Under the pieces are notes generated by a model. It was not told the DNA's origin, did no database searches, and saw nothing but the letters and a program-made list of their open reading frames with translations. From Candidatus Parcubacteria bacterium (lineage in GTDB: Bacteria > Patescibacteriota > Minisyncoccia > Minisyncoccales > JAGMDC01): a stretch of 64,000 nucleotides of DNA. Numbering within the stretch: the first letter of the stretch is position 1; each line of letters opens with the position of its first letter. Positions 1,944 through 48,260 of the stretch are shown here, piece after piece. Location: positions 43,364-107,363 of the forward strand of contig JAGLYZ010000002.1 in NCBI GenBank assembly GCA_023131895.1, given 5' to 3'. A program made the position numbers and the translations under genes.

Positions 1944-3323
1944 CTATACAATAGCTATCTGTGGATAACTTAATTTATATATATCCCCTGCTCCCATTAT
2001 GATTAGAATTTCTTTATTCTTTAGATTTTGTTTCAAATAATTCTCTGCTTTTTTAATAGATGAGACATACTTGACTTTTTCTCCATATGGATATTTTTTC
2101 AAGTTTTTATTAATTTTTTTAACTAATTTCTCCGAATCTACTTTACTTTTAATCGCCTTGTCTTCTCTGCCGGCAACATCATAAATGTCGGTAATAATCA
2201 ATCTATCAATCCAGCCTTTATTCAATGCCTCTTTAAAAACCTTAACAAAATCATCAAACAAATAATAAGTTCGCTGATATTGATGCGGCTGAAAAACACA
2301 CCAAATTTTCTGTTTGGAAAACTTTTCCCTGCATGCTTTTAAAGTTGCTTTTACTTCTGTTGGATGATGAGCGTAATCAGATATAATTGTTATTTTCTGC
2401 GTAATTCCGCGTTTAGTTCTGTGTAACTCCGCGTGCGTGAGCTCAAAACGGCGCCATGTTCCTTTAAATTCTGACAATGCTTGATAGCTAACTTTATCTG
2501 CAATTTTTAAAGCTCTAGCTATGGTCAAAGCAGCTAAAGCATTATAAATATTATACTCCCCTGGAATTTTCAGAATTTTTCTTAATTTCTCCTTTTCTTT
2601 TTTTTGATTTAATGAAAATACACAGGTCTGACCTGTGTATTTTTTGACTTGGGATGTCAAGATTTGAGCAATATTCTTATCATCTTTGTTAATTACTAAT
2701 ACTCCATTTTTTGGCAAATGTGATATAAACTCGTCAAAAGCTTTTAAGATATTCTTTAAGTTTTTATAATAATCCAAATGCTCCTTTTCAATATTGGTAA
2801 TAACAATAATCTTAGGCCAATAATTTAAAAATGATTCTTCATGTTCGCAGGCCTCAATAATTAAGTATTTGCTTTTGCCCATTCGAAAATTTGAATTCCC
2901 AAATTCTTTTAATTTTGTTCCAACAATTACTGTCGGGTCAAACCCGGCTTTTATTAAAACCAAAGCAGCCATTGCTGTGGTTGTGCTTTTGCCATGGGTT
3001 CCAGTTATGGCAATGGTAGAATACTTTTTTGTTAATTCTCCTAATGCCTCTGGATAAGACAAACATTTAATGCCCAGATTTTTCGCTTCTTTTAATTCTG
3101 GATTATCTTCTTTTACTGCCGGACTATAAATAATTAAATCATGATTTTTGGTTATATTTTTTGCGTATTGACCTATGATAATTTTAATCCCTTTTCTTTT
3201 CAGTAATTTAGTAATTTCAGAAGATGCTAAATCAGAGCCAGAAACTTGCTCGCCTTTTGCTAAACAATATTGAGCTAAAGCAGAAACGCCAATTCCGCCA
3301 ATTCCGATAAAATGAATTTTCAT
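1944..3323 (-). CDS. murC: UDP-N-acetylmuramate--L-alanine ligase
   Basis: 459 aa; N-terminal IHFIGIGGIGVSALA Rossmann motif, Mur ligase central domain TGTHGKSTTT, typical MurC length. Confidence 0.9.
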   Translation of the reverse strand: MKIHFIGIGGIGVSALAQYCLAKGEQVSGSDLASSEITKLLKRKGIKIIIGQYAKNITKNHDLIIYSPAVKEDNPELKEAKNLGIKCLSYPEALGELTKKYSTIAITGTHGKSTTTAMAALVLIKAGFDPTVIVGTKLKEFGNSNFRMGKSKYLIIEACEHEESFLNYWPKIIVITNIEKEHLDYYKNLKNILKAFDEFISHLPKNGVLVINKDDKNIAQILTSQVKKYTGQTCVFSLNQKKEKEKLRKILKIPGEYNIYNALAALTIARALKIADKVSYQALSEFKGTWRRFELTHAELHRTKRGITQKITIISDYAHHPTEVKATLKACREKFSKQKIWCVFQPHQYQRTYYLFDDFVKVFKEALNKGWIDRLIITDIYDVAGREDKAIKSKVDSEKLVKKINKNLKKYPYGEKVKYVSSIKKAENYLKQNLKNKEILIIMGAGDIYKLSYPQIAIV

Positions 3324-3919
3324 TTTAATGATATTGATTCTAATATAGTATATTTAGGACCTGCGCGTTTTAATTCGCTTTCCATTACTTCAATTGAATT
3401 TACTAGAAAGTTTAAAGAAATTTCCTCATCTATCTCCGGTCTTTCTTCTGGTTCCATTTTTCTCCATTCCCAAGCTTTAATTCTACCTAAAGTAATATGC
3501 GGCTTGAATTCCCTGTTTTCTGAAATAAAATTTATTCCAGTATGAATTAAAGATTTTTCCAAATCCTGTTTTAGATTAGCTAATTCTTCTACTTTTTGTC
3601 CTTCTGCCCAGACCATTCTTGGGGGTATTTTTTTAGGAGGGGCGTAGCAAATTCTATCCAAATTTATTGAAAAAGATGAATTTCCTGAAACTGCTTCTTT
3701 TGTAATTTTACAAATTTCTAACAGTTCTTCATCGCGGATAGAACCAATAAAAACTAAAGTAATATGAAGATTATCCGGCTTTACCGATTTAATAGGTAAA
3801 TCTGGCCATTTTTCTTGATAAACTGAAAGTTTCCTTTTAATATCTTCAGGCAGATTTATAGCAATAAAAATTCTTTTCCTCATTAATTTTAGCATAGCAG
3901 AATATTGACTTTTTCTCAA
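3320..3919 (-). CDS. thpR: RNA 2',3'-cyclic phosphodiesterase (2H phosphoesterase, LigT/ThpR family)
   Basis: Two H-x-T-L motifs (HITLVF and HITLGR) characteristic of the 2H family; about 190 aa; overlaps the murC start by 4 nt. Confidence 0.75.
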   Translation of the reverse strand: MRKSQYSAMLKLMRKRIFIAINLPEDIKRKLSVYQEKWPDLPIKSVKPDNLHITLVFIGSIRDEELLEICKITKEAVSGNSSFSINLDRICYAPPKKIPPRMVWAEGQKVEELANLKQDLEKSLIHTGINFISENREFKPHITLGRIKAWEWRKMEPEERPEIDEEISLNFLVNSIEVMESELKRAGPKYTILESISLK

Positions 3920-3934
3920 GAAACTGATTAGATT
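3905..3934 (+). promoter_or_regulatory. sigma70-like promoter candidate for the TFB-like gene (-35 TTGACT, 18-nt spacer, -10 TAGATT)
   Basis: Hexamers read directly about 30-55 nt upstream of the ATG at 3961. Confidence 0.35.
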
Positions 3935-3960
3935 GATTAACAGTTATTTAAAAACTTGAA

Positions 3961-4893
3961 ATGGGAAAAATGAAAGAAAAAGAAGATAAAGAAGAAAATG
4001 ATTGTCCATTAAAAGCTGAACAAATAAAAAAATGTCCTGAGTGCGGTTCTAAGGGTCTGGTACGGAATTATGATAAAGCAGAAATTTTTTGCGAGGATTG
4101 CGGGTTAGTAATAACAGAAAATATCGTTGACCTTGGTCCTGAGTGGCGTGCTTTTGATTTAGAACAGAAGTCCAAACGGGAGAGGACTGGCGCGCCAATG
4201 ACTTACAGAATTTATGATAAAGGATTGAGTACGAGTACATCTGTAAATAAAATACCGGGACTCTATCGCCCGAGAGACTGGCAAATTCACGTTGCGAATA
4301 CAACCGAAAGGAGTTTCATCTTCGCCCTAACTGAGATTGAGCGGATGGCATCTGCGCTTAGACTGCCGGTGAATATCAGGGAGACAACGTCTATGTTATA
4401 CCGCAAAGCGATGAAGAAGCGGCTAATCCGTGGGCGTAGCATAGAAGCAATAACTTCTGCTCTCCTATATATTAGCTGCAGACAGTATAGTGTGCCGCGA
4501 ACATTGGATGAGATTACAGAAATATCAAAAGTCGGGCAGAAAGAGATAAGCCGGGCATATCGCTTCCTTTTACGAGAACTGGACTTGAAAGTTTCGCCTG
4601 CCTCTCCTGCTGATTTTGTGCCGCGTTTCTGTTCCTTGCTTGATTTGGGAGACGATATAAGATCAAAAGCAGTAGAGATAATCAAAAAAGCAGAAGAAGT
4701 GGAACTAACCAATGGAAGAGGACCTATAGGAATAGCAGGAGCTGCTATTTATATCGCTGCGATGATAAGTGGTAAGCATCGTACACAAAAAGAGTTATCG
4801 AATGTTACGGGTGTGACCGAGGTCACAATAAGAAATAGATACAAAGAAATGTCAAAAGAATTAGCGATAGAGGAAATAGATACATTCCTGTGA
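3961..4893 (+). CDS. tfb: transcription initiation factor IIB/TFB homolog (archaeal-type; N-terminal Zn ribbon plus two cyclin-fold repeats)
   Basis: 310 aa. Zn ribbon CPECGS...CEDCG, then near-diagnostic TFB blocks: [66 protein letters not shown]. Local GC about 45-52% versus about 30% in flanks. Confidence 0.9.
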
Positions 4894-4914
4894 CAATATT
4901 CTGGACAAAAGTAA

Positions 4915-4944
4915 GAATAGGGATTAATTTCCCTTATTTTTTTT
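4915..4944 (+). terminator. intrinsic terminator after the TFB-like gene
   Basis: Hairpin ATAGGGAttaatTTCCCTTAT followed by a T8 run. Confidence 0.5.
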
Positions 4945-5016
4945 GACGAAGCTATTCTTTTGTTGTAATATGTAAATATAGTCCTTTTCTAAAAAGGCGG
5001 AAAAGAGGTAAAAAAA

Positions 5017-5622
5017 ATGGTAGACTTTGAAAAGAGAAAAGAAATAGTAGAAAGATTGAGATTCTACGAGGAAGGTATAGTATATTTAATGGATCGTCCC
5101 CAGTACTATCGATTTATAAGATATAAACTAAGAAACGCATTATCTACAAGAAAAGAAGAATTAGAGAAAACAATAAAGAAATTTAACATAAGCAAACACC
5201 GCGAAGAAACTTTGATTGAATTATTGGAAGAATTGGTAGATTTGGCGATGATAGAAAAAATTGACCTGATTATTGGCAACAACAAAAACATAGAAAGAAA
5301 AGTGAAAAAAATACTGAATACCACTATTTCTTATATAAGAAATATGAAAGGCGTCAGGATAAATCTGAAAAATGAATTCGGAATAAATGTAGATGACTAT
5401 TTTGAAAAGTTTTTCAGGAACTGCCAAAATACTTTTGAGATGATTAGTATAAAACCAAAAATAGAAGTTTTGACAGAGAGAATAGAAAACGAGAAATTAT
5501 TACCAGAAATCGACAAAGACGAGGTTTTAAATCAAATCGCGAAAATAGAGACAAAAAGTCAACTCGAAAAATTCCGGAGAATAATGGAAGAAAGAATGGG
5601 GATAATAGTAAAGGTCTTTTAA
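5017..5622 (+). CDS. hypothetical protein (201 aa, K/E-rich)
   Basis: ORF with AGAGG-like RBS 8 nt upstream; no recognisable domain. Confidence 0.5.
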   Translation: MVDFEKRKEIVERLRFYEEGIVYLMDRPQYYRFIRYKLRNALSTRKEELEKTIKKFNISKHREETLIELLEELVDLAMIEKIDLIIGNNKNIERKVKKILNTTISYIRNMKGVRINLKNEFGINVDDYFEKFFRNCQNTFEMISIKPKIEVLTERIENEKLLPEIDKDEVLNQIAKIETKSQLEKFRRIMEERMGIIVKVF

Positions 5623-5685
5623 AAATTCGGTTCGCTTATGCGAGCCTCTTTTTATTTATCTAAAAAGTGATAAAATTAAAATATA

Positions 5686-6753
5686 ATGAAAGAAGCAATA
5701 TTATACAAAAAACTTGCGGACAAAAGAGTTTACCCTGTTAAATCCCCGACAAGTCGTGGTGCGAAGCAATTTAACAGGGTGAAATGCCAGAATTGCGCTC
5801 ATTATTGTGTTATTGAAGAAGGAAAGCGAGGGATTTGCGGTGTCCGAGAAAATATTAATGGAAAACTTTATGCCCTGAATTATGGCAAAGCAATTGCCTG
5901 TAATATTGACCCTATTGAGAAAAAACCTTTATTTCATTTTTTACCAGGCACTCAATCACTATCTATAGCTACGGTAGGATGTAATTTTAGATGTGCTAAT
6001 TGCCAAAATTGGGATATATCCCAAGGTCCAAAACCAAACAAACCAATTTTAGGAGAAGATTTGTCGCCAAGAGAAATTGTTAAAATCGCCAAAGAGAATA
6101 ACTTGCCCTCTATTGCTTATACATATACCTCCCCCACTATTTTTTCTGAATATGCCTTAAATACAATGAAATTGGCCAAAGAACAAGGAATAAAAAATAT
6201 ATGGATAAGCAATGGATTTTGGTCAAAAGAATTATTCGAAATGATTTCTCCTTTTTTAGATGCTGCCAATATTGATTTGAAGGGTTTTTCTGACGATTTT
6301 TATATTAAATACTGCGGCGGCCGTGTTCAGCCAGTTTTAGATACCTTAGAACGCATAAAAAAGAAAAAAATCTGGCTGGAAGTGACTACTTTAGTAATTC
6401 CTAGTTTAACTGATTCTAAAGAAATGTTTGAAAATATTGCTAATTTTATCAAAAACGAATTAGACGCTGAAACGCCCTGGCATATTTCTCAATTTTCCGG
6501 AGCAATTTCCTGGAAATTGCAGCACTTGCCTGATACACCGGTTAAAACATTAAAAATGGCTTATGAAATTGGTAAAAGGGCTGGGTTGAAGTATGTTTAT
6601 ACTGGCAATGTACCGGGATTAGAAAGCGAAAACACTTATTGCCCAAAATGCGGAACTTTGGCAATTGAGCGGCTCGGCTATGCCATAAAACGTTTTGACA
6701 AAAATGGAAAATGCTCAAAATGTAGAGGAGAATTAGATTTAATTTTAAATTAA
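5686..6753 (+). CDS. amrS: AmmeMemoRadiSam system radical SAM enzyme
   Basis: CNFRCANCQN (C-x3-C-x2-C) radical SAM cluster plus an N-terminal CQNCAHYC...ICG cysteine cluster typical of AmrS/PflA-like activases; 355 aa. Confidence 0.8.
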   Translation: MKEAILYKKLADKRVYPVKSPTSRGAKQFNRVKCQNCAHYCVIEEGKRGICGVRENINGKLYALNYGKAIACNIDPIEKKPLFHFLPGTQSLSIATVGCNFRCANCQNWDISQGPKPNKPILGEDLSPREIVKIAKENNLPSIAYTYTSPTIFSEYALNTMKLAKEQGIKNIWISNGFWSKELFEMISPFLDAANIDLKGFSDDFYIKYCGGRVQPVLDTLERIKKKKIWLEVTTLVIPSLTDSKEMFENIANFIKNELDAETPWHISQFSGAISWKLQHLPDTPVKTLKMAYEIGKRAGLKYVYTGNVPGLESENTYCPKCGTLAIERLGYAIKRFDKNGKCSKCRGELDLILN

Positions 6754-6768: not shown

Positions 6769-7380
6769 ATGATTACCTTTGCCTGCTTTTCTCCTCATCC
6801 TCCCCTACTTTTGCCAGAAGTTGGCTCATCAGAGGATAGAGAAAAAGTTAAAAAAACAATTGAAAATTTGAAGTTTTTAGGAAAGAAATTAAAGGAATCT
6901 AATCCTAGTACTATTATTATTTCCTCTCCCCATCCTGATTGGGGTTTTAATGTTCCTCTTCATTTTTTAAACCCTAAACAAAATATTCCAAGCAGGCAAT
7001 TATTTATTCCTGACAAAACTCCTGATTTTTATTATCAACAAGGAAAAGAGTTTTATAATAAACTAGAAAAAGAAAAAAAATATGCCCTGATCGCCTCTGG
7101 TGATATGTCTCATTGCTTAAAAAAGGACGGCCCTTATGGCTTGAATCCTGACGGACCTAAATTTGATAAAGCATTGATTGAATATTTAAAGAATAAAGCT
7201 CTTGAAAACTTTTTAAAGCTAGACGAAATGTATCCAGAGGCCGGCGAATGCGGTCTTCGCTCTTTTTCTTTTATTTTAGGAATTTTAGATGCCTCAGGGC
7301 AAGCTTGGCAGCCGGAAATTCTTTCTTATGAATACCCATTCGGCGTCGGCTATCTTGTTGTAAATTTCAAATTGGGTTAA
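6769..7380 (+). CDS. amrB: AmrB-like protein (MEMO1/LigB-superfamily class III extradiol dioxygenase-like)
   Basis: N-terminal FACFSPHPPLLLPEVG matches the S/APH-x-P motif of LigB/MEMO family; position between amrS and the AMMECR1 gene; shorter (203 aa) than typical AmrB. Confidence 0.5.
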   Translation: MITFACFSPHPPLLLPEVGSSEDREKVKKTIENLKFLGKKLKESNPSTIIISSPHPDWGFNVPLHFLNPKQNIPSRQLFIPDKTPDFYYQQGKEFYNKLEKEKKYALIASGDMSHCLKKDGPYGLNPDGPKFDKALIEYLKNKALENFLKLDEMYPEAGECGLRSFSFILGILDASGQAWQPEILSYEYPFGVGYLVVNFKLG

Positions 7381-7832: not shown

Positions 7833-8399
7833 ATGAACCAATATAGTTTACTTGCCAAAAATGCGGTGGAAATATATATTAAAGAAGCAAGGATTATTTC
7901 TGCTCCTGAAAATCTGATTAAAGAGTTTTTCACAAAAAAAGCTGGAGTTTTTGTTACTATTGAGGAAAAAGATGAATTGCGAGGATGTATTGGCACTTAT
8001 TTGCCAACTAAAAACAATATTGCTAAAGAAGTGATTCACAATGCCATTGCCGCTGCAACTGAGGATTATCGCTTCTCCCCTATCCAGAAAGAAGAACTTT
8101 CAGAGCTTTCTTATACTGTATATGTTTTAAACAAGCCAGAACCAATCAAGAGCATAAATGAATTAGATCCGAAAAAATACGGCATCCTTGTAAAATCGCA
8201 GTCCTTTTCTTCTGGCTCTGATGTTATCTTTGAACCTGCGCCAAGAGCTCATTATAAATCAGGATTACTTTTACCAGGATTAGACGGCGTGGATACTTCA
8301 GAAAAACAAATTTCTATTGCCTGCCAAAAAGGAAACATAAATCCAGAAACAGAAAAAATAATAATTTACAAATTTACAGTAGATAAATTTGAGCAATAG
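7833..8399 (+). CDS. amrA: AmmeMemoRadiSam system protein A (AMMECR1 domain)
   Basis: AMMECR1 signature LRGCIGT and LLLPG motif; 188 aa. Confidence 0.8.
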   Translation: MNQYSLLAKNAVEIYIKEARIISAPENLIKEFFTKKAGVFVTIEEKDELRGCIGTYLPTKNNIAKEVIHNAIAAATEDYRFSPIQKEELSELSYTVYVLNKPEPIKSINELDPKKYGILVKSQSFSSGSDVIFEPAPRAHYKSGLLLPGLDGVDTSEKQISIACQKGNINPETEKIIIYKFTVDKFEQ

Positions 8400-20711: not shown

Positions 20712-22547
20712 TCAATGTTTTTCTTCTCGAGCCGCTCGTTTCGCGCTGTTTTCGTCCAAAAATACTTTTCTTATCCGGATATTTTTGGGAGTAATTTCCA
20801 CAAGCTCGTCATCGTTGATATAAACCAAGGCGTCTTCTAAATCCATGATTTTCGGTTCGTTAAAATGCTCGGTGACGCCATCGCCACGTGAACGCATATT
20901 AGAAAGCTGTTTTTCTTTGCAGACATTCACCCTGATATCTTCGCTTCTTGAATTCTGACCGACCACCTGGCCTTCATAAACTTTGATGCCAGGCCCCAAA
21001 AACAAAAACCCCCGGCTTTGAACGTTTCTCAATCCGTATAAATTGGTCATACCAGTTTCGTGAGCTACCAAAGAACCATGATTTCTTTCTTTCCAGCCGC
21101 CGGAATCCTTTTGATATTGATAAAAATTAGTATTAATAATACCCATGCCTTTAGTGTCAGTTAGAAATTCGCTCCTGTATCCAAAAAGGCCTCTGGTCGG
21201 AATGATAAATTCCAAAAAAACAATGCCGTCAATATTCTTCATATCAACCAACTCCCCTTTTCGGCTATTTAACTTTTGTATAACAGAACCATGGAATTTT
21301 TCCGGCACTTCAATGTAAACTTTTTCAAACGGAACCATTTTCTGTCCATCAATTTCCTTAACAATCACCTGAGGTCTGGAAACCTGCAATTCATAGCCCT
21401 CGCGGCGTATTCTTTCAATGAGAATAGCTAAATGCAGCTCTCCCCGTCCGGAAACCGTCCAACTGACGCTCGTTAATTCTTCAATTCTTAAAGCCACGTC
21501 GGTTTCCAATTCTTTATAGATCCTTGCTTTTACTTGGCGCGAAGTTGAAAACTGTCCTTCTTTGCCGGCAAACGGAGAATTATTGACCAAAAATGTCATT
21601 TTAACAGTCGGCTCTTCTATATTAATTATTGGCAGAGCTTTTGGATCTATAGGATCGGCAATTGTTTCCCCGATAGTCACGTCCGGTATTCCGGCTAAAG
21701 CCGCGATATCGCCTGCTGAAACCTCGGCTGCCTCCTTTCTGTTTAAGCCAGAAAAGGTCATTAAAGAAATTAAACGGTGTTTCTTTACCTGGCCGCGCTT
21801 GTTAATGTAGGTTATTTCCTGCCCGGATTTAATAACGCCGTTATGAACTCTGCCGATGCAAATTCTTCCCTTAAAATCGTCTCCAGAAATTGAAGTAACA
21901 AGCATCTGCAACGGCTTTTGCGGATCGCCTAATGGCGACGGAATATGCTTGAGAATCGCATCAAAAAGAGGGATAATATCAGTCATTTTATTAAGGTCGG
22001 GATCTATCCCCGCTTTGCCTTCTCTCCCAGAAGCATAAATTACAGGGAAATTCAAAGCGTTTTCGTCCGCGCTCAATTCTAAAAACAAATCAAGCGTCGC
22101 GTTTAAAGCAAAATCTATTCTCGCGCCGGCTTTATCTATTTTATTGATCACCACGATAATTTTATGGCCCATTTCAAGCGCTTTTTTCAAAACAAATCTG
22201 GTCTGATGCATGGGGCCGTCTTTTGCGTCAATTAACAGCAAACAACCATCCGCCATATTTAAAACTCTTTCCACCTCTCCGCCAAAATCCGCGTGGCCCG
22301 GAGTGTCAATGATATTGATTTTAGTCCCATTATAGTGAATCGCCGCATTTTTAGAAAAAATAGTGATACCTCTTTCCTTTTCCAACTCATTACTGTCCAT
22401 TATGCATACTTGATTAGCCAAATCTTTCCCCAAGTCGCTTTTGGACTGGCGCAATAAAGCGTCAACCAGCGTGGTTTTTCCGTGGTCAACATGGGCAATA
22501 ATAGCGATATTTCTGATATTAATTTTATCCATAATATTATTCAACAA
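20712..22547 (-). CDS. typA: translational GTPase TypA/BipA
   Basis: G1 AHVDHGKTT, G3 DTPGHADF, G4 NKID, EF-G-like domains; 611 aa. Confidence 0.9.
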   Translation of the reverse strand: MLNNIMDKINIRNIAIIAHVDHGKTTLVDALLRQSKSDLGKDLANQVCIMDSNELEKERGITIFSKNAAIHYNGTKINIIDTPGHADFGGEVERVLNMADGCLLLIDAKDGPMHQTRFVLKKALEMGHKIIVVINKIDKAGARIDFALNATLDLFLELSADENALNFPVIYASGREGKAGIDPDLNKMTDIIPLFDAILKHIPSPLGDPQKPLQMLVTSISGDDFKGRICIGRVHNGVIKSGQEITYINKRGQVKKHRLISLMTFSGLNRKEAAEVSAGDIAALAGIPDVTIGETIADPIDPKALPIINIEEPTVKMTFLVNNSPFAGKEGQFSTSRQVKARIYKELETDVALRIEELTSVSWTVSGRGELHLAILIERIRREGYELQVSRPQVIVKEIDGQKMVPFEKVYIEVPEKFHGSVIQKLNSRKGELVDMKNIDGIVFLEFIIPTRGLFGYRSEFLTDTKGMGIINTNFYQYQKDSGGWKERNHGSLVAHETGMTNLYGLRNVQSRGFLFLGPGIKVYEGQVVGQNSRSEDIRVNVCKEKQLSNMRSRGDGVTEHFNEPKIMDLEDALVYINDDELVEITPKNIRIRKVFLDENSAKRAAREEKH

Positions 22548-23757
22548 ATGTTAAGGCAACGCCTCTTTTATTGATACGGCCTGTTCTGCCGATGCGGTGC
22601 ACGTAATCTTCGTAAGTTGCGGGCACGTCGTAATTAATCACATGGCTCACATCAGGGATATCAAGCCCCCGAGCCGCCACATCTGTTGCCACTAAAATAC
22701 TGATATTGTCTTCCTTAAACGATTTTAAGGATCTAAGGCGGCTGGCATAGTTCTTGTCTCCGTGGATTGAATCAGCTTTAAAACCGTATCTCGCTAGATT
22801 GTTAGATAATCTTTCCACGCCGTACTTGGTTCTGCCAAAAATAAGCACTTTGCGGAATTCGTCTTTCGCCAATAAATTACAAAGTGTCCCTATCTTTCCT
22901 CTGCTTGAAACTCTAACTATGTCTTGATAAATGTTTTCCGGCGTATCTCCGGTTTTAACAAACACGGTAACAGGTTTGTTGAGAAATTCGTTAATGAGCA
23001 GCTCAGCTTCTCGGGTCATAGTCGCTAAAAAGCAAAGCGCGTGGCGCTTTGGAGGCATTAGAGACGTAATAAATTTTATATCCGCGATAAACCCCATATC
23101 CAGCATTCGGTCGGCTTCGTCTAAAATAATTGTGGAAAAAGCGGAAAGATTTATAAATCTCCGTTGGATCAAATCCTTTAATCTCCCCGGAGTGCCGATA
23201 ATAAAATGATTGCGGTAATTTTTCAATTCGGAAATTTGGCTACGGATGGAAGTTCCGCCAACGCAGCAGGCGGAATAAATATTAATGCCGCGCGAAAAAC
23301 TCTTAAACTCCTGGTTGATTTGTGTCGCCAGCTCGCGAGTAGGCGCGATAATCAGCACTTTTTCTCGAGGATTTAACAATACTTTCTGTATCAAAGGGAT
23401 TAAAAAAGCGCCGGTTTTGCCAGTACCTGTATTGGCAATGCCCACCACGTCAAGGCCTTGTAAAACATGCTCAATGATTTTATCTTGAATGGGAGTGGGC
23501 GTTTTAAATCCTTTAGCCAGAATATTGGCTCTCAAACGCTGATCAATATTAAAATCTTGGAACTGGTGAGTCGGCGCGAAAACTTTCGCTTTTTGAGCAA
23601 CAACGTTTTTGTTAATAAACCGATCAATGCTGATTTCCTTAGCAAAACCCGAGCGTCTTTTGCGAACGCCGAAGTTGGAATATTTGCGGAATGAATGTTT
23701 GTCAAAATGTCTTGTTACCATAAATAAAATAAAATGCCGCACAAAGTCTCGCGACAT
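22537..23757 (-). CDS. DEAD-box ATP-dependent RNA helicase
   Basis: Q motif (GFKTPTPIQ), motif I (NTGTGKT), DEAD (ILDEADRMLDMGF), SAT-like (ATMT), motif VI (HRIGRTGR); overlaps the typA start by 11 nt. Confidence 0.9.
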   Translation of the reverse strand: MSRDFVRHFILFMVTRHFDKHSFRKYSNFGVRKRRSGFAKEISIDRFINKNVVAQKAKVFAPTHQFQDFNIDQRLRANILAKGFKTPTPIQDKIIEHVLQGLDVVGIANTGTGKTGAFLIPLIQKVLLNPREKVLIIAPTRELATQINQEFKSFSRGINIYSACCVGGTSIRSQISELKNYRNHFIIGTPGRLKDLIQRRFINLSAFSTIILDEADRMLDMGFIADIKFITSLMPPKRHALCFLATMTREAELLINEFLNKPVTVFVKTGDTPENIYQDIVRVSSRGKIGTLCNLLAKDEFRKVLIFGRTKYGVERLSNNLARYGFKADSIHGDKNYASRLRSLKSFKEDNISILVATDVAARGLDIPDVSHVINYDVPATYEDYVHRIGRTGRINKRGVALTFVE

Positions 23758-24598: not shown

Positions 24599-25762
24599 CT
24601 ACTTAATAATCCCTCCTTCTTTTTCTATTGTTTTCATTTTATCCTTTATCCCCTCCTCTAATTTTTTATATTTATCCCAAGTAAGCAACCAAACCAAGGC
24701 AATGGAATCAATGGCATCAGCCAAAATATAAATACTAATTTTATCAAGTTTATCTTTATACTCTGAATCTTCTAAAATTTTCATTTTTTCATATTCTTGT
24801 TTCTTAATGCCTTCCGGAATAAAATCAGTGGAAATTAAATAAGAAACAAAACAAACCGCTTTGACATAATCATATATCTTTTTGTTCCCCTTGCCTAAAA
24901 TTTTCTTATCAGCAAGTTTTCCTTTAACTTTTTCTATTTCCCACTTTCTTTTACTTAATTCATCTATTACTCCATAGAGAAAAGATTCTTTGAACTTTTC
25001 TTTCAGCTTTTTATTTTTAATAAACTCAGGCGCACCATCAATATCATAATCAAAAACATCTCTTTTTTTATCAAATTCGTAAAATTTTATTATTTCTTTA
25101 TCCCAGTATTTCTCCATATCTGGATGAATAGTTGAGGGTCCATAAAAGTCTCTATCATCGCAATGCGGCGGCACATGAGCGTCAGATAAATAATGACTTA
25201 ACATTAAGAAATAAAGCGCTATTTGATTATCATTGAACATAATATTGGAACCTTTTGGCTCCTTTTTTTGAATCAAAACCATATCTCTAATAGCGTGAGA
25301 TAGGGCCTCACATCTATCAGGAAGCACATATTTAGACTTTCTGCAGACTTTTTCTTTAAGTCTGGATTCATTAATTCCAAGTTTTCTCAACGAACACAAA
25401 TGATTCGGTGTTCGATTCTTGAATTCTTTAGCTTCTTTTCTTTCTTTCCTTGTTGACGGTTTTTTAAGTTTAAAGGTATGCCCGCCAGTGAGGTTATCAG
25501 AAATAACGTTGTCCGGAAACCAAGCCCCTTTAAGAAATGCATCTTTGTGTTTATCAAAAAATTTCACAAAGCTTTCAGCTTGTTTTTTAAAATGATCGTC
25601 AAAATCGTCGCCGAGAAAATAGCCCCTGAAATTTTTACCAAGAAAACTCCGCCTAAAAGATTTATATCTTTTAGGCCCCTTTAATCTTTCTAGGGCCATT
25701 AAGGCTAGCCAAGCATGAGCTATTTTTTTCATGTTTATTAATATCCTACCATCTATCTCCAC
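24599..25762 (-). CDS. Zn-dependent phospholipase C / S1-P1 nuclease superfamily-like protein
   Basis: LSHYLSDAHVPPHCDD matches the PLC/P1 zinc-binding block (L-H-Y-x-x-D-x-x-x-P-x-H); N-terminal HAW...; 387 aa. Confidence 0.45.
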   Translation of the reverse strand: MEIDGRILINMKKIAHAWLALMALERLKGPKRYKSFRRSFLGKNFRGYFLGDDFDDHFKKQAESFVKFFDKHKDAFLKGAWFPDNVISDNLTGGHTFKLKKPSTRKERKEAKEFKNRTPNHLCSLRKLGINESRLKEKVCRKSKYVLPDRCEALSHAIRDMVLIQKKEPKGSNIMFNDNQIALYFLMLSHYLSDAHVPPHCDDRDFYGPSTIHPDMEKYWDKEIIKFYEFDKKRDVFDYDIDGAPEFIKNKKLKEKFKESFLYGVIDELSKRKWEIEKVKGKLADKKILGKGNKKIYDYVKAVCFVSYLISTDFIPEGIKKQEYEKMKILEDSEYKDKLDKISIYILADAIDSIALVWLLTWDKYKKLEEGIKDKMKTIEKEGGIIK

Positions 25763-28903: not shown

Positions 28904-31261
28904 TTATATTTCTAGATCTCCTAATGCAGTTATCATTGGAAGTAAGGTTGGGGAAATCGCTCTTGAAAATTGTGAAATTTTCTCAAAAACCGACATAGCA
29001 CCAACTTTTGCGTCTTTAAAGGTTTTTTCTTTTTCAGCTTTTTTGTCAAAATCAAGGAAAGATATACCCAAAAGAACCATACCATACTTAAATCTTGCTT
29101 CTAAAATTTTAGGGTCAGTTTTTATATTTCCTTTTATCTCCATTTGAAGATAAATATTATCCATATTTATGTAAAAATCGTATCCTGCCTCCTCTCCCGC
29201 ATCTAATACATACAAAGCGCTTTTTTCATCGAACTTATATTTTTCCCACTCGTTTCTTCTCACCTCACAGATGTTAGGAATATCAAGATGAGCCGAGTCT
29301 TGTCTATCTGAACCTTTTTTCTTACCGGGAGACTTTTTCTTTTTATTCTCTCCATTATTATTTCCTTCGTTTTCCTGCGGTTGATCTATAATTATGCAAA
29401 ATTCATTTAAAAATGGTTCAACCCGGGTTATATCAGACACTTCTGATTGAAAGTATAGCTTGTCCCCGATTTTTACATCGGACAGCATTTCGATTGTTAA
29501 CGTGGCAATACCATTCCACAAATTTATAGAATGGTTTTTGGTAGCTATATTGTTAATTTTAATGATTAACTCGCCAGGTTCTTTGTCGCGATTAAAATAA
29601 TCATTTTCAGCATCGGTTTCATATTGGACACGAAATTTTGTATTACTTATGGGACACACTTTTGGCTTTGATTTTGTATATTCTTTATCTAATTTGAAAT
29701 AAGTAGGAAATTCCTTGCCTTTAAATTTCCCTTTCCCTGATACCCCCGTAAGCTTAAACGGATTTTTAATTCTTATACCTTTTGTAAAAAGGCTTGATAA
29801 TGATGGGGATTTTTTTATTATATTCTCTAAGATATCCGCTAACGGTTTTGAATCCTGCAACTTGTTTTCAATATCTTCTCTTCTCCTTTTTTCCCTCAAG
29901 TCTCTAAGTCCTTGGTGATTTTTAATAATATCTTCAAGGGACGCTTCGATTTCATCTTGCATCGGTCCACCGCTCAACCTGTCACGACTATTCATAAACA
30001 AATCTTCTTGCATTCTTCTATTAATTTTTGAACAATCTACCATAACCAAAATACTATCTACGAGGTAACCCATACGAACTGACTGCCGTTCAAAGAATGA
30101 CTTTAACAAAAAACCGTGCGTTTGGCCATTAACTGTAAAAATAATTCCTTCTTGGCCGGCATAAGTTTCTCTTTTTCCGGACTTAAATGCAAAAATTGAA
30201 TAATCCATTTTTTGTCCCCTGATAACAAGTTCACCAGAGCTTGGAAAGTTATCTTCAAGATTTTCTCGTTTATCTTCATCAAGTCTAACACTCAATCCGG
30301 AAAGTATTTTCAAGGGGCTTTTCTCATATCTAACATCGGCCACTTTTATAGGAAGAGCAATATTTGGCATCAAAAGTGAAAGTCTATTATGCAAGTGACG
30401 TGTGGCATCAGATCTTAAGCGACCTGTCCCTATTTGGTATTCATAAACTTTTACAAAAGTTCCGTGAGTTATAGGTTTTTTGTATGGCCGTATATCCTCT
30501 CCGGGCAATAACGGCAGAGACGATGAATTAAAAGAAAGAATTTTACCACCGGGAGCGAGATAAATAAAAACAGAACTTCTCATTTGACCAACTGGACTTT
30601 TCCTTCTAATAATTGTCATACCCCATTTATCATCTATATTTTCTTCTTTTATTCCAGGGTCTCTCTTTGATATGATTAGCTGTAAATTATGTTCCGGACT
30701 ACCAAATCTAAAAACTCCCGTTCCGCCCATTCCAAATTTACCTTGCACAAACTGAATTTTACTTTTATTACCCCTATTAAGAGAAAGAAAAGTATTAAGA
30801 AAAGATTTTGGTGACTGTCCTTCGCCTAAATCAACTATTGAATATGAAGGGTTTGCATTAGTCCCTTTTTCACCAGATGCAATTAAAAAAATATTTTCAG
30901 CAATTTTCGATCTTGTACTAGCGTCAATTAAAGATAACTTACCATTATAAATACCAAAATACTTTTTTTGGGCTTCGGCTATGTTTTTTGGTGCAGCGTC
31001 ACTTTCGGGCTTGATCCCGCTCCTCAAACATTCTCGCATTAATACCGCATCTACAGAATTAATAATTTTTTCAACGAGAGCAGTATCTGGTGCGCTCTGC
31101 TGATTACCGATAGTTGACCAATTTCCCTGACTCTCGTCAATTTCCTTCCACGTATTCTCGTCTTTCCATAAATTAAAACTATTTAATACTCCGATAACTT
31201 CTTTTTCTGTTTCTGCTTTTGCTAATAAAAGCGTTAGATTTTTGATATCTTCATTTACCAT
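28904..31261 (-). CDS. GHKL/Bergerat-fold ATPase domain protein (HATPase_c_3-like, MORC/Hsp90-like ATP-binding site) with about 550-aa uncharacterised C-terminal region
   Basis: N-box EKIINSVDAVL (E-x3-N-x2-DA), G1 box IVDLGEGQSP (D-x-G-x-G), G2 box GKFGMGGTGVF in the N-terminal 200 aa; 785 aa. Confidence 0.6.
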   Translation of the reverse strand: MVNEDIKNLTLLLAKAETEKEVIGVLNSFNLWKDENTWKEIDESQGNWSTIGNQQSAPDTALVEKIINSVDAVLMRECLRSGIKPESDAAPKNIAEAQKKYFGIYNGKLSLIDASTRSKIAENIFLIASGEKGTNANPSYSIVDLGEGQSPKSFLNTFLSLNRGNKSKIQFVQGKFGMGGTGVFRFGSPEHNLQLIISKRDPGIKEENIDDKWGMTIIRRKSPVGQMRSSVFIYLAPGGKILSFNSSSLPLLPGEDIRPYKKPITHGTFVKVYEYQIGTGRLRSDATRHLHNRLSLLMPNIALPIKVADVRYEKSPLKILSGLSVRLDEDKRENLEDNFPSSGELVIRGQKMDYSIFAFKSGKRETYAGQEGIIFTVNGQTHGFLLKSFFERQSVRMGYLVDSILVMVDCSKINRRMQEDLFMNSRDRLSGGPMQDEIEASLEDIIKNHQGLRDLREKRRREDIENKLQDSKPLADILENIIKKSPSLSSLFTKGIRIKNPFKLTGVSGKGKFKGKEFPTYFKLDKEYTKSKPKVCPISNTKFRVQYETDAENDYFNRDKEPGELIIKINNIATKNHSINLWNGIATLTIEMLSDVKIGDKLYFQSEVSDITRVEPFLNEFCIIIDQPQENEGNNNGENKKKKSPGKKKGSDRQDSAHLDIPNICEVRRNEWEKYKFDEKSALYVLDAGEEAGYDFYINMDNIYLQMEIKGNIKTDPKILEARFKYGMVLLGISFLDFDKKAEKEKTFKDAKVGAMSVFEKISQFSRAISPTLLPMITALGDLEI

Positions 31262-40240: not shown

Positions 40241-40462
40241 CTATTCTTTTATTCCTTTAACTGCTTCTTCTTTTTCTGTGTCAAGCAAAATGATATCCTT
40301 TAAAGTTTTCAAAAGACCAATCCTTTCTTTTTCATCTAAATAAGGCAATCTATCTAAAAATTCCTTTCTTTGTTCTTCTGTTATTAATGGAGTTTCTTTA
40401 ATAAGGCCTTTCAAAGATTTATTTGTGAGAAGAATATTAGTCATAAGTTTATATTTCTCCAA
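40241..40462 (-). CDS. hypothetical small protein (73 aa)
   Basis: ORF overlapping the upstream E/K-rich gene end by 14 nt. Confidence 0.35.
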   Translation of the reverse strand: MEKYKLMTNILLTNKSLKGLIKETPLITEEQRKEFLDRLPYLDEKERIGLLKTLKDIILLDTEKEEAVKGIKE

Positions 40463-42158
40463 AAATAATTGCTAAAATCCAATCTATTAGACCATACTTT
40501 TTTTCTGAGAATTCTTTATAAACTTCTTTCTGCTCGTCTGTAAGTTTTTCTGGCTCAATCCCCCAACTTTCAAGAGTTTCTCTCAAACCTTCCTCATCTT
40601 CTTCCCATTCTCCTTCTAATTCTTCATCTTTTTTTATTAATTTAGTAAATTCTTTTTTTATATTTTCTTTCCCTTCTTTGCCTTTTCCAAATTCTTTTTC
40701 TATTTTCGCTTTTCTTTTAGAATCTTTGTCAATTTCTTTTGATAATTCTCGTGCCGCTACATCTCTTCCCATTTTTTCATAACATTTCTCTATTATTTCA
40801 TCTGTGGTTTTTTCCACTTCCTCTTTAAGAATATCATTCTTTTTTTCTTCAAATTTTATATTCCATTCCTCTCCCAATTCCTCTTTTTTGGTATTAATTT
40901 CTCCATTTTTTATTTCATTACCTATTTCAATAATTTTTTCAAATCTTGTCATTTTTATCTTCCCACCTATTTGCTTCCCTGTTATATTAACTTTATCCTC
41001 ACCAAAAGGATTAATTTTTCTTGCTTTTTTTATTTTTCCAATCTCCTCTGGAGAAATTTCCTGTTTTAGAAAAGCAAGAACATCACTTTCTTCTATTTCC
41101 TTCAATCCTTTCAAATTCTTATTTAAAGTTTCCTGCAGATAATCTACTCTTGACTTAGCATAATCATCAATACTTCCCGCTGCTTTTTGCTTCACAGGCG
41201 ATAATCTGTCCCATTCCTCCTGAAAAAATTTATTTATTTCTTCAATTTTAAAAGTTTCTATTCCTTTTTCTACATAATCATTTTTTTCTCCTATACCTGC
41301 TTCAGTTTTTGTTTTCTTATCTAAATTTTCTCCAACAAGCTTTTCCCAAACTTTTTCTTTAATTGGACCCTCGGGAAGACGTTTGAAAATTGCTGTTTTT
41401 ATATCCGGAGGGAGATCTTCTCCAAAATATTCTATTTCTTCTCTTAAATTTTCAGCGTATTTCCATTCTTTATTCTCTTTATCAAGTAAACCCCAAAATT
41501 CATTCTTATCCCTGACACAATCCATTACTCTGCTTTCATCAAACTCATCTATGTCTTGCCCTGCCAATTCCGAATAATCATCTGGGTAATTTTCTATTTG
41601 CTCTTTTAACCATTCTTTACCTTGACTAACTAAAATATCTTTCATTTGCTCCTCAAGAATGCCTTGAATACTTTTAATAGTATCTTTATCTACGCTAAAT
41701 CTTTCTTTGTCGTAAAATCTTCTATAAATTTCACTTTTTCTATCCTCTGTTTTCTTTCTTTTTTCCTCTTCCAATTTTTCTCCCAATTCAGGAGATTTTT
41801 TCTTCTTTTTTCTCTCTACTTTTTCTTCCTTTTCCTTTTTTTCTTTTTCTTCTTCTCCTTTTCCCGCTTCTTTTTTTCTCGCTTCCAGTATTTTTTCAAT
41901 CTCTTCCTTTGACATACTATCTTTATCTATTTCTTTATCCGCTATTTTTTCTCCTTTTTCTTGTTTTCCCACATTTTTTTTGTTATTATTTTCATCTTTT
42001 AGTTCCGACCTTTTTATTTTTTCTTTTGTTTCGTTTGTAAAATCATCCTCTTTCACTTCCTCCTCTTCTTCAACTGAAAAATTCCAGCCCGTCTCTTTGC
42101 CCGTTTCTTTCATCTCTTTGAGAATTTTTTTTCCTAATCCTCTTTCTCTTTTTCTCAT
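40449..42158 (-). CDS. lysine/glutamate-rich low-complexity protein (569 aa) with hydrophobic C-terminal tail
   Basis: About 45% K+E, coiled-coil character, ends in LIDWILAIIFGEI; immediately downstream of the VirD4-like gene. Confidence 0.5.
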   Translation of the reverse strand: MRKRERGLGKKILKEMKETGKETGWNFSVEEEEEVKEDDFTNETKEKIKRSELKDENNNKKNVGKQEKGEKIADKEIDKDSMSKEEIEKILEARKKEAGKGEEEKEKKEKEEKVERKKKKKSPELGEKLEEEKRKKTEDRKSEIYRRFYDKERFSVDKDTIKSIQGILEEQMKDILVSQGKEWLKEQIENYPDDYSELAGQDIDEFDESRVMDCVRDKNEFWGLLDKENKEWKYAENLREEIEYFGEDLPPDIKTAIFKRLPEGPIKEKVWEKLVGENLDKKTKTEAGIGEKNDYVEKGIETFKIEEINKFFQEEWDRLSPVKQKAAGSIDDYAKSRVDYLQETLNKNLKGLKEIEESDVLAFLKQEISPEEIGKIKKARKINPFGEDKVNITGKQIGGKIKMTRFEKIIEIGNEIKNGEINTKKEELGEEWNIKFEEKKNDILKEEVEKTTDEIIEKCYEKMGRDVAARELSKEIDKDSKRKAKIEKEFGKGKEGKENIKKEFTKLIKKDEELEGEWEEDEEGLRETLESWGIEPEKLTDEQKEVYKEFSEKKYGLIDWILAIIFGEI

Positions 42159-42181
42159 GTTTTTTACCCTGTTAAATAATT

Positions 42182-44626: not shown

Positions 44627-44641
44627 TAGTATTTCACTGTT

Positions 44642-45364
44642 TTATTTTCTTCCAAACAATCTTTTTATTATTCCCAGCCTACCTTTCTCTTCCTCTTCTT
44701 TCTCTTTCCCTTCTGGTATTCCTGTTTCTTCTCCACTAATTTTTTCTTCATCTTTTTCTGACTCTGTCTTTTTCACAAGCTCTCCTCTTCGTTCTAATTC
44801 TTGTAATTCTTCCTTTAATTGATTATAATTTTCTTCCAATTTCTTCATTTCTTTTTCTCTTTCTTCTAAATCTATCAGAGGATTTTGCCATTTTTCTTCT
44901 GGTATTCTACGAATTCCACCTTTGTCAAATTCACCTTTTTCTATTCTTATTTTAAATCTTTCCGCATTCTCCTTCGCCATAGTTAACATCTTATATTTCT
45001 GGTCTATTTCTAAAATTACTCCTTCTAAGTTATTAAAAATCTCCTCGGCTTTTTCTGTTAACAATCCATTTCTTTGCAACTCTTTCCAATTTTCCATTTC
45101 TCGCATTTTTTCCATAGCTTCTTCTATTTTTTCTTTCTCTTCTTCTATTATTTCCCTTTCTTCTGGTGTTAATTCGTCTTTTAACTCTTTCCTTGTTTCT
45201 TTAATCTTTCTTTTGTCTTCGGCTTCAATCTCGGCTTCTTGTTCCTCAATTTCCTCTTCTGACACTTCTTCAATTTTTTCTTCTTTAACTGCCCCTTCTT
45301 CTTTCCTTTTTTCTGCTCTTGTTCTGCCCTCATATTCAATTTTAGGTTTTTCTTGTTTTGGCAT
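44642..45364 (-). CDS. E/K-rich coiled-coil protein (240 aa) with N-terminal PKIEYEG motif
   Basis: Low-complexity charged heptad-like sequence; shares its N-terminal motif with the genes at 47346-48254 and 46652-47248. Confidence 0.5.
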   Translation of the reverse strand: MPKQEKPKIEYEGRTRAEKRKEEGAVKEEKIEEVSEEEIEEQEAEIEAEDKRKIKETRKELKDELTPEEREIIEEEKEKIEEAMEKMREMENWKELQRNGLLTEKAEEIFNNLEGVILEIDQKYKMLTMAKENAERFKIRIEKGEFDKGGIRRIPEEKWQNPLIDLEEREKEMKKLEENYNQLKEELQELERRGELVKKTESEKDEEKISGEETGIPEGKEKEEEEKGRLGIIKRLFGRK

Positions 45365-45417
45365 AAATTTAAATTTTGAATTTTTTTTATTAAACTCGAC
45401 CTTTTTATTTTTCTAAT

Positions 45418-45807
45418 TTATTTTTCTAAAAATTTCTTGAAACGGCCTTCTTCTGCTAAAGTGTCGTGGAATAAATCTAAAAGATATGGGTCGTTCATTT
45501 TCCGAACCACTTCTACCGCATAAGCCAAACCCTGGGTTTGAGCCAAATCTAAAAGATGCTGGATCTTCCCTTGAACCGTTCCTTTTTTTATATCATCGGC
45601 TTGCTTTTGGGCTTGGACTTTTGTTTGAGGAGATAACTTAACCTTTTCAATCTCTTTTTCTATTTCTTTCCTTGCTTCTTTTTCCTGCTCGGTTAATTCT
45701 TTCTTTTCTAAAATCTCCTCCCTTTCTTCTAGGGTTTCTTTGGGAAAAACCTCTTCTCTGTATTCCTTTCCCGGTGCCTTTTCAATTTTTTTATTTGTTT
45801 CTTCCAT
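45418..45807 (-). CDS. E/K-rich small protein (129 aa)
   Basis: Charged N-terminal half, conserved-looking C-terminal helical region (LLDLAQTQGLAYAVEVVRKMNDPYLLDLFHD). Confidence 0.45.
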   Translation of the reverse strand: MEETNKKIEKAPGKEYREEVFPKETLEEREEILEKKELTEQEKEARKEIEKEIEKVKLSPQTKVQAQKQADDIKKGTVQGKIQHLLDLAQTQGLAYAVEVVRKMNDPYLLDLFHDTLAEEGRFKKFLEK

Positions 45808-45808
45808 A

Positions 45809-46648: not shown

Positions 46649-46651
46649 AGT

Positions 46652-47248
46652 CTATTTCTTTTCGCCTTGAAAATATTTTTCTTTCAAAAATTTACTAAAT
46701 TCTTGCATCTCTTTTTGGTAAACCAATATTCCCTCTTCTTGCTTGGCTTGAGGCAAATCCTCAACCACATCCGCTCCTTGATTAGTGATGGCAAAAGCCC
46801 CATAAATTCCCCGTGATTCTATATGAAGCCGAATATCAAAAGCAACTTCTCTATCTTTGTAAAACTCATCTAATAATTCAATCATTCTTGATTGGTGTTT
46901 TAGATTTTCTTTTTTCCATTCTTTTTGAACTGATTCACTCTCTTTTAAATTTTTTGGTTCAGGAGATTTAATCCAAACCCAAGGAGCCCTTGATTGATGT
47001 CCTTTTACCTCTATTTCTTCGGGGCGCTTGGCGGGATGTCCTTCACAAGATTGATATGTTGGAAATTCTAAAGCTTTTAGGGTAATTACAGTTTCTTTAA
47101 TCCCAGGATCAATAGGCCTTCCTTCGGCATCTGCTATTTTTTTAACTTCTTTCTCTATTTCTTTTAAGCGCTTTTCTTTTAAGGGTAACTTTAATTCTTG
47201 CGATTTCTCTTCGGCATTTTCAATTTTTGACTTGAATCTCTCTCGCAT
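46652..47248 (-). CDS. hypothetical charged protein (198 aa), N-terminus MRERFKSKIEN...
   Basis: ORF 4 nt from the Fic gene; N-terminal motif shared with neighbours. Confidence 0.45.
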   Translation of the reverse strand: MRERFKSKIENAEEKSQELKLPLKEKRLKEIEKEVKKIADAEGRPIDPGIKETVITLKALEFPTYQSCEGHPAKRPEEIEVKGHQSRAPWVWIKSPEPKNLKESESVQKEWKKENLKHQSRMIELLDEFYKDREVAFDIRLHIESRGIYGAFAITNQGADVVEDLPQAKQEEGILVYQKEMQEFSKFLKEKYFQGEKK

Positions 47249-48254: not shown

Positions 48255-48260
48255 AAATCT

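Follow-up and report, generated by a model that had tools for sequence, protein, structure and literature searches.

The stretch of DNA analysed here (the window) comprises 64,000 nucleotides of a Candidatus Parcubacteria bacterium (assembly GCA_023131895.1, contig JAGLYZ010000002.1, positions 43,364-107,363 of the forward strand), placed by GTDB in Patescibacteriota; Minisyncoccia; Minisyncoccales; JAGMDC01. In this window we identified a gene for the archaeal basal transcription factor TFB that was captured from the ANME-1 (Methanophagales) lineage by an ancestor of a cold-seep Minisyncoccales/Nealsonbacteria-like clade. Our tentative reading is that the product is a host-mimicking factor, which would act on the archaeal RNA polymerase (RNAP) and TATA-binding protein (TBP) of an ANME-1-type host. 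As far as the accessible literature shows, TFB in these bacteria is unreported; the literature searched yielded no report of TFB or TFIIB in Patescibacteria.

Positions are given in window coordinates and residues in a 310-amino-acid (aa) TFB numbering. L numbers denote loci and P numbers the TFB proteins compared, and A1 is an alignment of the LigT-TFB intergenic region from seven lineages.

Identity and replication of the TFB gene

Profile and structure-database matches agreed on the identity of the gene. Pfam PF08271 (Zn_Ribbon_TF) matched residues 24-65 with 62.5 bits, PF00382 (TFIIB repeat) matched twice with 157 bits, and NCBIfam NF001658 "transcription initiation factor IIB" scored 392.1 bits over residues 17-304, above its cut-off of 384. 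The top PDB matches were human TFIIB (3.8e-54) and Pyrococcus TFBc (5.5e-53), the alignment to the crystal sequence of the latter spanning residues 111-303. Because these matches agree, we regard the window gene as a full-length canonical archaeal TFB, more than a cyclin-fold protein; every motif quoted in the original prediction, which had named it as such, was present. A bacterial sigma70 profile gave only a sub-threshold Sigma70_r4 match over the helix-turn-helix (16.6 bits vs 24.1), and true sigma factors that occupy the same slot in relatives (L143, L120) scored 45-64 bits per region. Of two in-frame ATGs, the second (3970) is probably the true start, because public gene calls use it (P0001) and, in other lineages, a Shine-Dalgarno (SD)-like GGAG/GGTG aligns a short way before it.

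3970-4893 (+): TFB coding sequence, 307 aa from the ATG at 3970 (310 aa from the in-frame ATG at 3961), stop codon at 4891-4893
4030-4110 (+): Zn-ribbon, residues 24-50, with Cys25, Cys28, Cys44 and Cys47 (Pfam Zn_Ribbon_TF)
4111-4296 (+): B-reader and B-linker, residues 51-112, with conserved motifs
4297-4584 (+): first cyclin repeat, residues 113-208 (Pfam TFIIB repeat)
4585-4860 (+): second cyclin repeat, residues 209-300 (Pfam repeat 212-299), with the helix-turn-helix that reads the B recognition element (BRE) at 284-296

The four cysteines of the Zn-ribbon, the element that docks on RNAP in archaea, were invariant in 11/11 bacterial copies. Between ribbon and core, the window TFB has the motifs GPEWR.F, R.GAP and DKGLST; the block starting DLGpeWR.FD..Q was essentially invariant in the 11 bacterial copies, the B-reader being their most conserved region (75% pairwise identity), and the distal B-linker (residues 92-112) was relaxed. 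The first cyclin repeat, the TBP/DNA-contacting core of a canonical TFB, aligned gap-free to human TFIIB and Pyrococcus TFBc. In the second repeat, the BRE-reading helix of the window copy was identical to the archaeal consensus; its V-T-I-R is the equivalent of human V283/R286. The N-terminal tail is non-conserved, K/E-rich and 24% identical among bacterial copies. It is encoded by the AT-rich 5′ end, which had been described as looking ameliorated; the AT-richness stands, and the stretch encodes this non-conserved tail.

A chimeric assembly, raised as a concern with the original prediction, was excluded by three separate contigs and by synteny in many diverged lineages. Three contigs, each assembled separately and with two samples named in the records, carry the identical 307-aa protein (P0001) in the same surroundings: the 92.5-kb NCBI contig DAOVNT010000003.1, a 14.5-kb ENA scaffold from SAMN18200500, whose upstream part is distinct in having an inserted APH gene and a 174-aa open reading frame (ORF), and a 3.8-kb scaffold from SAMN18200499. 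The order shared by carriers is MurC and LigT on one strand and, on the other, TFB, (small ORF), radical SAM, LigB/Memo and AMMECR1, with EF-P further on. In this slot between LigT and the radical SAM gene, TFB also occurred in at least nine further diverged lineages, in assemblies spanning NCBI, ENA, JGI and Logan, and LigT adjoins TFB in every carrier. Identities to the window TFB were as follows.

L004, Minisyncoccales metagenome-assembled genome (MAG) GCA_049642725.1: 69%
L066, "Ca. Nealsonbacteria" CSMAG_2411: 68%
L067-L070, a MAG labelled Saccharibacteria and three contigs from other metagenomes: 65%
L071, a 164.5-kb ENA scaffold: 77%
L073, GCA_030643485.1: 66%
L075, an ENA contig: 64%
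L092, L093 and L136, from JGI metagenomes scanned with the adjacent LigT protein: 52-54%

In a host-gene tree of concatenated LigT and MurC, the six carriers with full data formed a clade with 100% bootstrap, L092/L093 and L136 fell outside this main carrier clade, and the TFB cassette was patchy across the tree. Because the latter loci lie outside and the neighbour-joining phylogeny of TFB itself is poorly resolved, it must be assumed that the cassette either spread later between related bacteria or was lost repeatedly. GCA_964615205.1 (L006/L067) is titled "Candidatus Saccharibacteria bacterium", a label that looks wrong, as gene order and the LigT and MurC tree put it in the Minisyncoccales-like carrier clade.

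The C-termini of the copies vary. Short basic tails were present on the L004, L075, L092 and L093 copies, and on neither the window copy nor the ANME-1 TFBs. P0054 (L067 10001-11347) is 448 aa long, its C-terminal extension of ~150 aa overlapping the start of the radical SAM gene and resembling a partial extra cyclin/helix-turn-helix segment. A fusion of TFB with the downstream ORF in L067 was not supported, the extension being dissimilar to that ORF.

Donor lineage, base composition and constraint

Among 8000 homologues scored in the donor search, the best were ANME-1/Methanophagales TFBs with 75-80% aa identity, so that the horizontal acquisition from archaea proposed originally can now be given a named donor. 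Every bacterial copy showed a median identity of 65-73% to ANME-1 TFBs vs 53-58% to other archaeal TFBs, and the bacterial copies were less similar to each other (59-66%) than to ANME-1. The closest cluster, P0002 "GoMg1", has 44 members, among them several Methanophagales MAGs and an ANME-1 "ERB6" entry, and represents a real ANME-1 subclade. The window gene and the ANME-1 GoMg1 gene had 77.5% nucleotide identity and a synonymous divergence (dS) of 0.81, about that between two ANME-1 lineages. The ANME-1 orthologues lie in the conserved housekeeping context RNase HII-TFB-Endo_dU.

Derived residues common to the bacterial copies (V76T, R186T), together with the homologous promoter region across carriers, argue for a single founding insertion. 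In a neighbour-joining phylogeny of 120 TFBs the bacterial copies fell next to the ANME-1 cluster or within it, with bootstraps of 25-55% and the long-branch P0061 and P0054 floating; this tree is compatible with one or several acquisitions, and character counts favour the GoMg1 subclade as source by only 3:1:1. A scan of IMG/VR for a viral vector returned only one 36-residue Zn-ribbon match. P0033 (MCK4731673.1, on a 1.4-kb contig) is labelled "Methanophagales archaeon" but groups with the bacterial copies and shares their signature residues T76 and T186; its contig probably belongs to Patescibacteria and was sorted into an ANME-1 MAG by mistake. If so, the mis-binning would itself hint at abundance co-varying with ANME-1.

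Base composition has less to say about origin than had been claimed. The TFB gene had a GC content of 0.418 against an ORF mean of 0.337 (z = 2.3), with a maximum of 0.467 per 300 nucleotides (nt), below the 45-52% originally given for the gene body. Three other window ORFs, encoding an RRM protein, a DEAD-box helicase and BipA, were equally GC-rich, and composition was therefore rejected as proof of foreign origin. GC contents at first, second and third codon positions (GC1, GC2, GC3) were as follows.

Window TFB: GC1 0.48, GC2 0.41, GC3 0.36
Pooled neighbours: GC1 0.41, GC2 0.33, GC3 0.28
ANME-1 TFB genes: GC1 0.52-0.56, GC2 0.43-0.45, GC3 0.42-0.46

Because most of the excess lies in GC1 and GC2, and because GC3 of the L067 TFB (0.285) is below that of its neighbours, the synonymous sites are largely ameliorated, and the excess mainly reflects a constrained archaeal-type amino-acid sequence. 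Of the description "compositionally foreign" there thus remains a modest GC excess, matched elsewhere in the window and largely due to amino-acid composition. The BipA/TypA gene and adjacent DEAD-box helicase gene (20712-23757, -) have a GC3 of 0.42-0.43 (z ~3), above that of TFB, which may reflect high expression or another acquisition.

Pairwise ratios of nonsynonymous to synonymous divergence (dN/dS) among bacterial TFB copies were 0.13-0.30, a range that reflects maintenance by purifying selection. Their dS of 0.7-2.3 was within the range of flanking genes for the same pairs, consistent with co-inheritance, and their dN exceeded that of most housekeeping neighbours. TFB showed zero nucleotide differences among L001, L002 and L003, which precluded a dN/dS within the population. 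Between two of these strains (L001 9436-9591 vs L003), 23 nt differences were clustered in a 156-nt patch of LigT (window ~3405-3560) that looks like local recombination; LigT overall had 10 amino-acid changes between them and the adjoining TFB none.

We then scored the 11 bacterial copies at 115 alignment positions whose conservation across 104 archaeal TFBs was at least 97%. The archaeal-invariant cells were retained as follows.

Zn-ribbon: 93%
B-reader: 94.5%
B-linker: 94%
Cyclin repeat 1: 90.5%
Cyclin repeat 2: 87%

The sole cluster of losses was in the BRE-reading helix (285-292) of P0021, P0009, P0046, P0053 and P0061, including R291 (the human R286 equivalent) changed to G or V; the window copy is intact. 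The bacterial-clade consensus differed from all ANME-1 TFBs at one position only, and the window copy was not accelerated (23 unique changes vs 18 for ANME-1). On these two counts, acquisition was not accompanied by the burst of change that refitting to a bacterial partner would predict.

Expression signals and candidate roles

The regions flanking TFB contain the following predicted signals.

3905-3934 (+): predicted sigma70-type TFB promoter, -35 TTGACT at 3905-3910, 18-nt spacer, -10 TAGATT at 3929-3934
3891-3919 (-): predicted divergent LigT promoter, TTGAGA, 17 nt, TATGCT with TG
3943-3954 (+): conserved 5′-leader block GTTATTTAAAAA, nearly invariant in 6/7 lineages (A1)
4919-4944 (+): terminator-like hairpin AGGGAttaattTCCCT (4919-4934, 5-bp stem) followed by the T run TATTTTTTTT

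The sigma70-like -35/-10 pair of the original prediction is weak as a motif match, at 9/12 positions with seven such matches in the region vs 4.4 +/- 2.3 expected by chance, but it is conserved in every carrier lineage. In A1, the -35 element TTGACTTT was invariant and the -10 (TAgATT/TATGAT) conserved in the seven lineages; L092, L093 and L136 showed the same promoter architecture, and the SD-like GGAG/GGTG was conserved upstream of the ATG matching window 3970. This cross-lineage conservation, far better evidence than the motif matches, makes the upstream signals consistent with bacterial expression of TFB. The intrinsic terminator was recovered as a hairpin with a T run, its 5-bp stem being weak (two terminator-like sites found vs 0.8 expected).

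The -35 element sits inside a palindrome, TTGA-N7-TCAA, with arms invariant in A1; the palindrome TTGActttttcTCAA (3905-3919) supplies the -35 hexamers of both divergent promoters, that of TFB and that of LigT, back to back. With its start at 3883 directly downstream of the predicted -10, the LigT mRNA would be near-leaderless. A similar -35 palindrome, TTGACTnnnnnnTCAA, was found in L143, where a sigma gene occupies the slot. The leader block is similar to CTTTATTTATATAT, the TATA-box region that precedes the tfb gene of ANME-1 (L076 7960-7975); it may be left over from an archaeal promoter or act as an operator, or the likeness may be fortuitous in so AT-rich a sequence. Use by TFB of an ancestral radical SAM promoter was considered and rejected, as empty sites have a different, compact divergent promoter.

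Among the functions originally listed for the protein (sigma mimic, RNAP modulator, weapon against an archaeal host or neighbour, DNA-binding repressor), the evidence favours a weapon or tool against an archaeal host, followed by a role with the bacterium's own RNAP. Under the former, the carriers would be surface parasites or epibionts of ANME-1-type archaea, and TFB would act on the host transcription machinery, not on the bacterium's own. The conserved Zn-ribbon and B-reader would insert into archaeal RNAP and the cyclin core would bind TBP-DNA, so that the bacterial TFB could take the place of host TFB in pre-initiation complexes or compete with it there, with the outcome that host transcription is redirected or dampened. 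Type IV secretion or pilus machinery, widespread in the phylum, would be a candidate for delivery. The argument for a host-acting TFB, possible though short of probable in our estimate, comes from the conservation of those residues with which archaeal TFBs contact RNAP, TBP and DNA; the constraint, we infer, would still be exerted by the archaeal machinery of the host. That a cold-seep clade delivers a copy of the TFB of its ANME-1 host in order to hijack or throttle host transcription, as a form of cross-domain mimicry, we put forward more tentatively still.

We infer ANME-1 as the host from shared habitat and the known archaeal parasitism of the class. The window's samples (SAMN18200499, SAMN18200500 and SAMN18200507) were taken at Site-F, a cold seep of the South China Sea with reported ANME (PMC9357000), and the CSMAG genomes come from a global cold-seep catalogue (PMC10491686). 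The class Minisyncoccia includes Minisyncoccus archaeiphilus, which obligately parasitises Methanospirillum, as well as "Ca. Nealsonbacteria" and "Ca. Yanofskyibacterium", both of which live in association with Methanothrix (PMC13293708, PMC12281837). Parasitised methanogens show lower activity by rRNA-targeted fluorescence in situ hybridization (PMC10936435), and components of type IV secretion systems (T4SS) are near-universal across the phylum (PMC12102498), the window itself encoding a VirD4-like coupling ATPase (42182-44626). The literature searched contained no paper on bacterial parasites of ANME-1.

Several points weigh against a host-acting TFB. Genes of the sigma70 family occupy the same slot in the orientation of TFB in L143 and L120/L126, a hint that TFB may serve transcription in the bacterium itself. 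Five bacterial copies are without archaeal-invariant BRE-reading residues, changes that a perfect mimic would not need, and most bacterial copies other than that of the window evolve 2-5 times faster than ANME-1 TFBs. The loss of BRE residues could be tolerable for a competitive inhibitor that merely occupies RNAP or TBP. No export signal was recognised in TFB, no dedicated prediction having been run, and two look-ups of ANME-1 TFB contigs gave samples other than those of the carriers. We know of no demonstrated delivery of a protein from Patescibacteria into an archaeon. In favour of a host-acting TFB, on the other hand, no TBP or TFE Pfam family was found in the annotated genes at seven carrier loci or in the scanned window ORFs; this inspection covered 64 kb of the present genome and ~20 kb per other carrier. 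A tblastn search for TBP in the window and all collected loci (~1 Mb) gave no matches, a weak negative given approximate queries (Pyrococcus, human) and no positive control.

We consider it somewhat unlikely that TFB works inside the bacterium to regulate its own transcription, either as a sigma- or anti-sigma-like RNAP modulator or as a DNA-binding repressor or activator, bound to RNAP via ribbon and reader or to DNA via the helix-turn-helix, possibly at its own leader. The conserved bacterial promoter and SD-like motif, the absence of a recognisable export signal and the sigma70-family genes in exactly the same slot and orientation, with the L143 palindrome, fit such a role. So do the leader block, which could be an operator, the dN above that of housekeeping neighbours, the BRE-reading helix changed in some lineages and the weak Sigma70_r4 similarity. 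However, a switch of partner should leave clade-wide derived substitutions, of which only 1-4 exist, whereas RNAP/TBP-related residues are 90-95% conserved in copies diverged as far as housekeeping genes, and the window copy is about as conservative as the ANME-1 copies. The slot also carries unrelated cargo, so that the sigma genes may be coincidence, and no precedent was found in the literature searched.

It is very improbable that TFB is a functionless passenger drifting at an insertion hot spot. The many alternative cargos, the ~28 empty-site loci and the patchy distribution of the cassette on the host-gene tree would suit a passenger, but its ORF is intact in at least 10 lineages, dN/dS is 0.13-0.30 with dS up to ~2, 87-95% of invariant archaeal residues are kept and the promoter and SD-like motif are conserved, while the 100%-bootstrap clade of six carriers implies long vertical retention. 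An ANME-1 fragment mis-joined to a bacterial contig in assembly or binning, which shared habitat and a TFB more GC-rich than its flanks might suggest, has next to no likelihood given identical junctions in the three contigs (one with a different upstream context), the same synteny in many diverged lineages from four assembly sources, the largely ameliorated GC3 and conserved bacterial upstream signals.

Neighbouring genes and comparison with known systems

The surroundings of TFB are bacterial, as had been predicted: greA, efp, dnaB, dnaX, recR, mraZ, rsmH, ftsI and murC were all recovered. The bacterial genes of the window encode MurC, LigT, EF-P, XseA/XseB, GreA, an AddA-like helicase-nuclease and BipA, as well as DnaX, CysRS, DnaB, RecR, MraZ, RsmH, FtsI and ClpB, and the window GC of 33.5% is typical for Patescibacteria. 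The genes next to TFB are the following.

3320-3883 (-): LigT, 2′,5′ RNA ligase/cyclic phosphodiesterase family (Pfam LigT_PEase), one border of the slot
5017-5622 (+): fast-evolving ORF of 201 aa downstream of TFB, predicted all-helical
5686-6753 (+): radical SAM gene (AmmeMemoRadiSam-type, Pfam), other border of the slot
6769-7380 (+): LigB/Memo-like gene (AmmeMemoRadiSam-type, Pfam)
7833-8399 (+): AMMECR1 gene (AmmeMemoRadiSam-type, Pfam)

The slot (window 3884-5685; loci L091-L170) is a cargo hot spot among relatives. It was empty in ~28 related loci, where LigT faces the radical SAM gene across a gap of 43-223 nt; alternative cargos were a 162-aa multi-pass membrane protein, Zn-finger proteins (185-250 aa), a PEPCK_ATP-like gene (GC 0.44) and an HMG-CoA-synthase-like gene (GC 0.40). 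The 201-aa ORF matched no Pfam or NCBIfam family and had no counterpart in L004 or L067; its counterparts in L071, L073 and L075 (206, 231 and 225 aa) are mutually 40-63% identical and weakly similar to it (E = 3e-4). A single-sequence AlphaFold model was all-helical with a mean confidence (pLDDT) of 48.7, too low for a fold search, and as modelled the product does not look like a TBP. In relatives (among L141, L142, L154, L158, L099 and L102) the radical SAM gene is 544-553 aa long, with 302 aa in the L102 ORF, and the insertion after its CxxxCxxC region looks like an intein or homing endonuclease.

Elsewhere in the window, a VirD4/TrwB-like coupling ATPase is encoded at 42182-44626 (-), within a block (40449-49014, -) of largely unassigned ORFs (569, 240, 129, 198 and 302 aa) that also contains a Fic/DOC protein (45809-46648) and an IS200-like Y1 transposase (48292-49014); the block may be a mobile or T4SS-associated island. 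Large ORFs at 24599-25762, 28904-31261 and 58155-59075 (-) (387, 785 and 306 aa) were without a Pfam family and could encode lineage-specific surface or host-interaction proteins typical of Patescibacteria.

The retention of TFB in a bacterium is unexpected, as informational genes whose products work only within multi-protein machines should seldom move successfully from one domain to another; in this case bacteria have kept a basal initiation factor of archaea under selection, with its obligate partners not seen nearby in the loci inspected. The finding should surprise specialists of archaeal transcription and of the candidate phyla radiation (CPR) alike. It supplies a host prediction, ANME-1, for uncultured cold-seep Minisyncoccales, and ANME-1 are globally important methane oxidisers. 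If TFB is a host mimic, it would be the first marker in a genome to indicate that ANME-1 has a bacterial symbiont; if it acts on host RNAP or TBP, it would represent a new class of inter-domain effector and a natural probe of archaeal initiation. Should its partner be bacterial RNAP instead, it would bear on the debated relationship between sigma factors and TFB.

Compared with the housekeeping TFB of ANME-1 (GoMg1/ERB6 subclade, P0002), the window TFB has the same full architecture, including the BRE-reading helix, and an identity of up to 80% in protein and 77.5% in nucleotide sequence. The two differ in that the bacterial copy lies behind a sigma70-type promoter and SD-like motif, whereas the ANME-1 genes have a TATA/BRE promoter, and no TBP was seen near the bacterial copy in locus gene tables and window ORF scans. 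The bacterial N-terminal tail differs, an "NCPLK" motif being present in several bacterial copies; most bacterial copies are faster, and some lack BRE-reading residues or have added C-terminal tails.

Legionella and other intracellular pathogens use eukaryote-like proteins and nucleomodulins as host-derived mimic effectors. Like these, the present TFB would be a gene of the host lineage (taking ANME-1 as host) obtained by horizontal transfer and selected in a reduced, host-dependent bacterium, with the residues for engaging host machinery kept. Unlike them, the presumed host is archaeal, the mimicked protein is a basal initiation factor and the effector role is putative.

A viral protein of ATV reportedly inhibits archaeal RNAP as a basal-factor-like inhibitor, a precedent for attack on archaeal transcription. 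The Sulfolobus TFS4 paralogue, reportedly another such inhibitor (PMC5715097), is a precedent for regulating or attacking archaeal transcription at the step of the initiation machinery. Both are encoded by an archaeon or its virus, whereas the present TFB is encoded by a bacterium and known from sequence alone; moreover, TFS4 derives from TFS, not from TFB.

The transfers of form III RuBisCO (bioRxiv 10.64898/2026.05.13.725050) offer a parallel in direction, from archaea to CPR bacteria, in the class concerned (Minisyncoccia) and in long-term retention, and transfer of metabolic genes from archaea to Patescibacteria has been described by Wrighton et al. 2016, as cited in PMC13293708. RuBisCO, however, is a stand-alone enzyme, whereas TFB is informational and normally needs archaeal TBP and RNAP.

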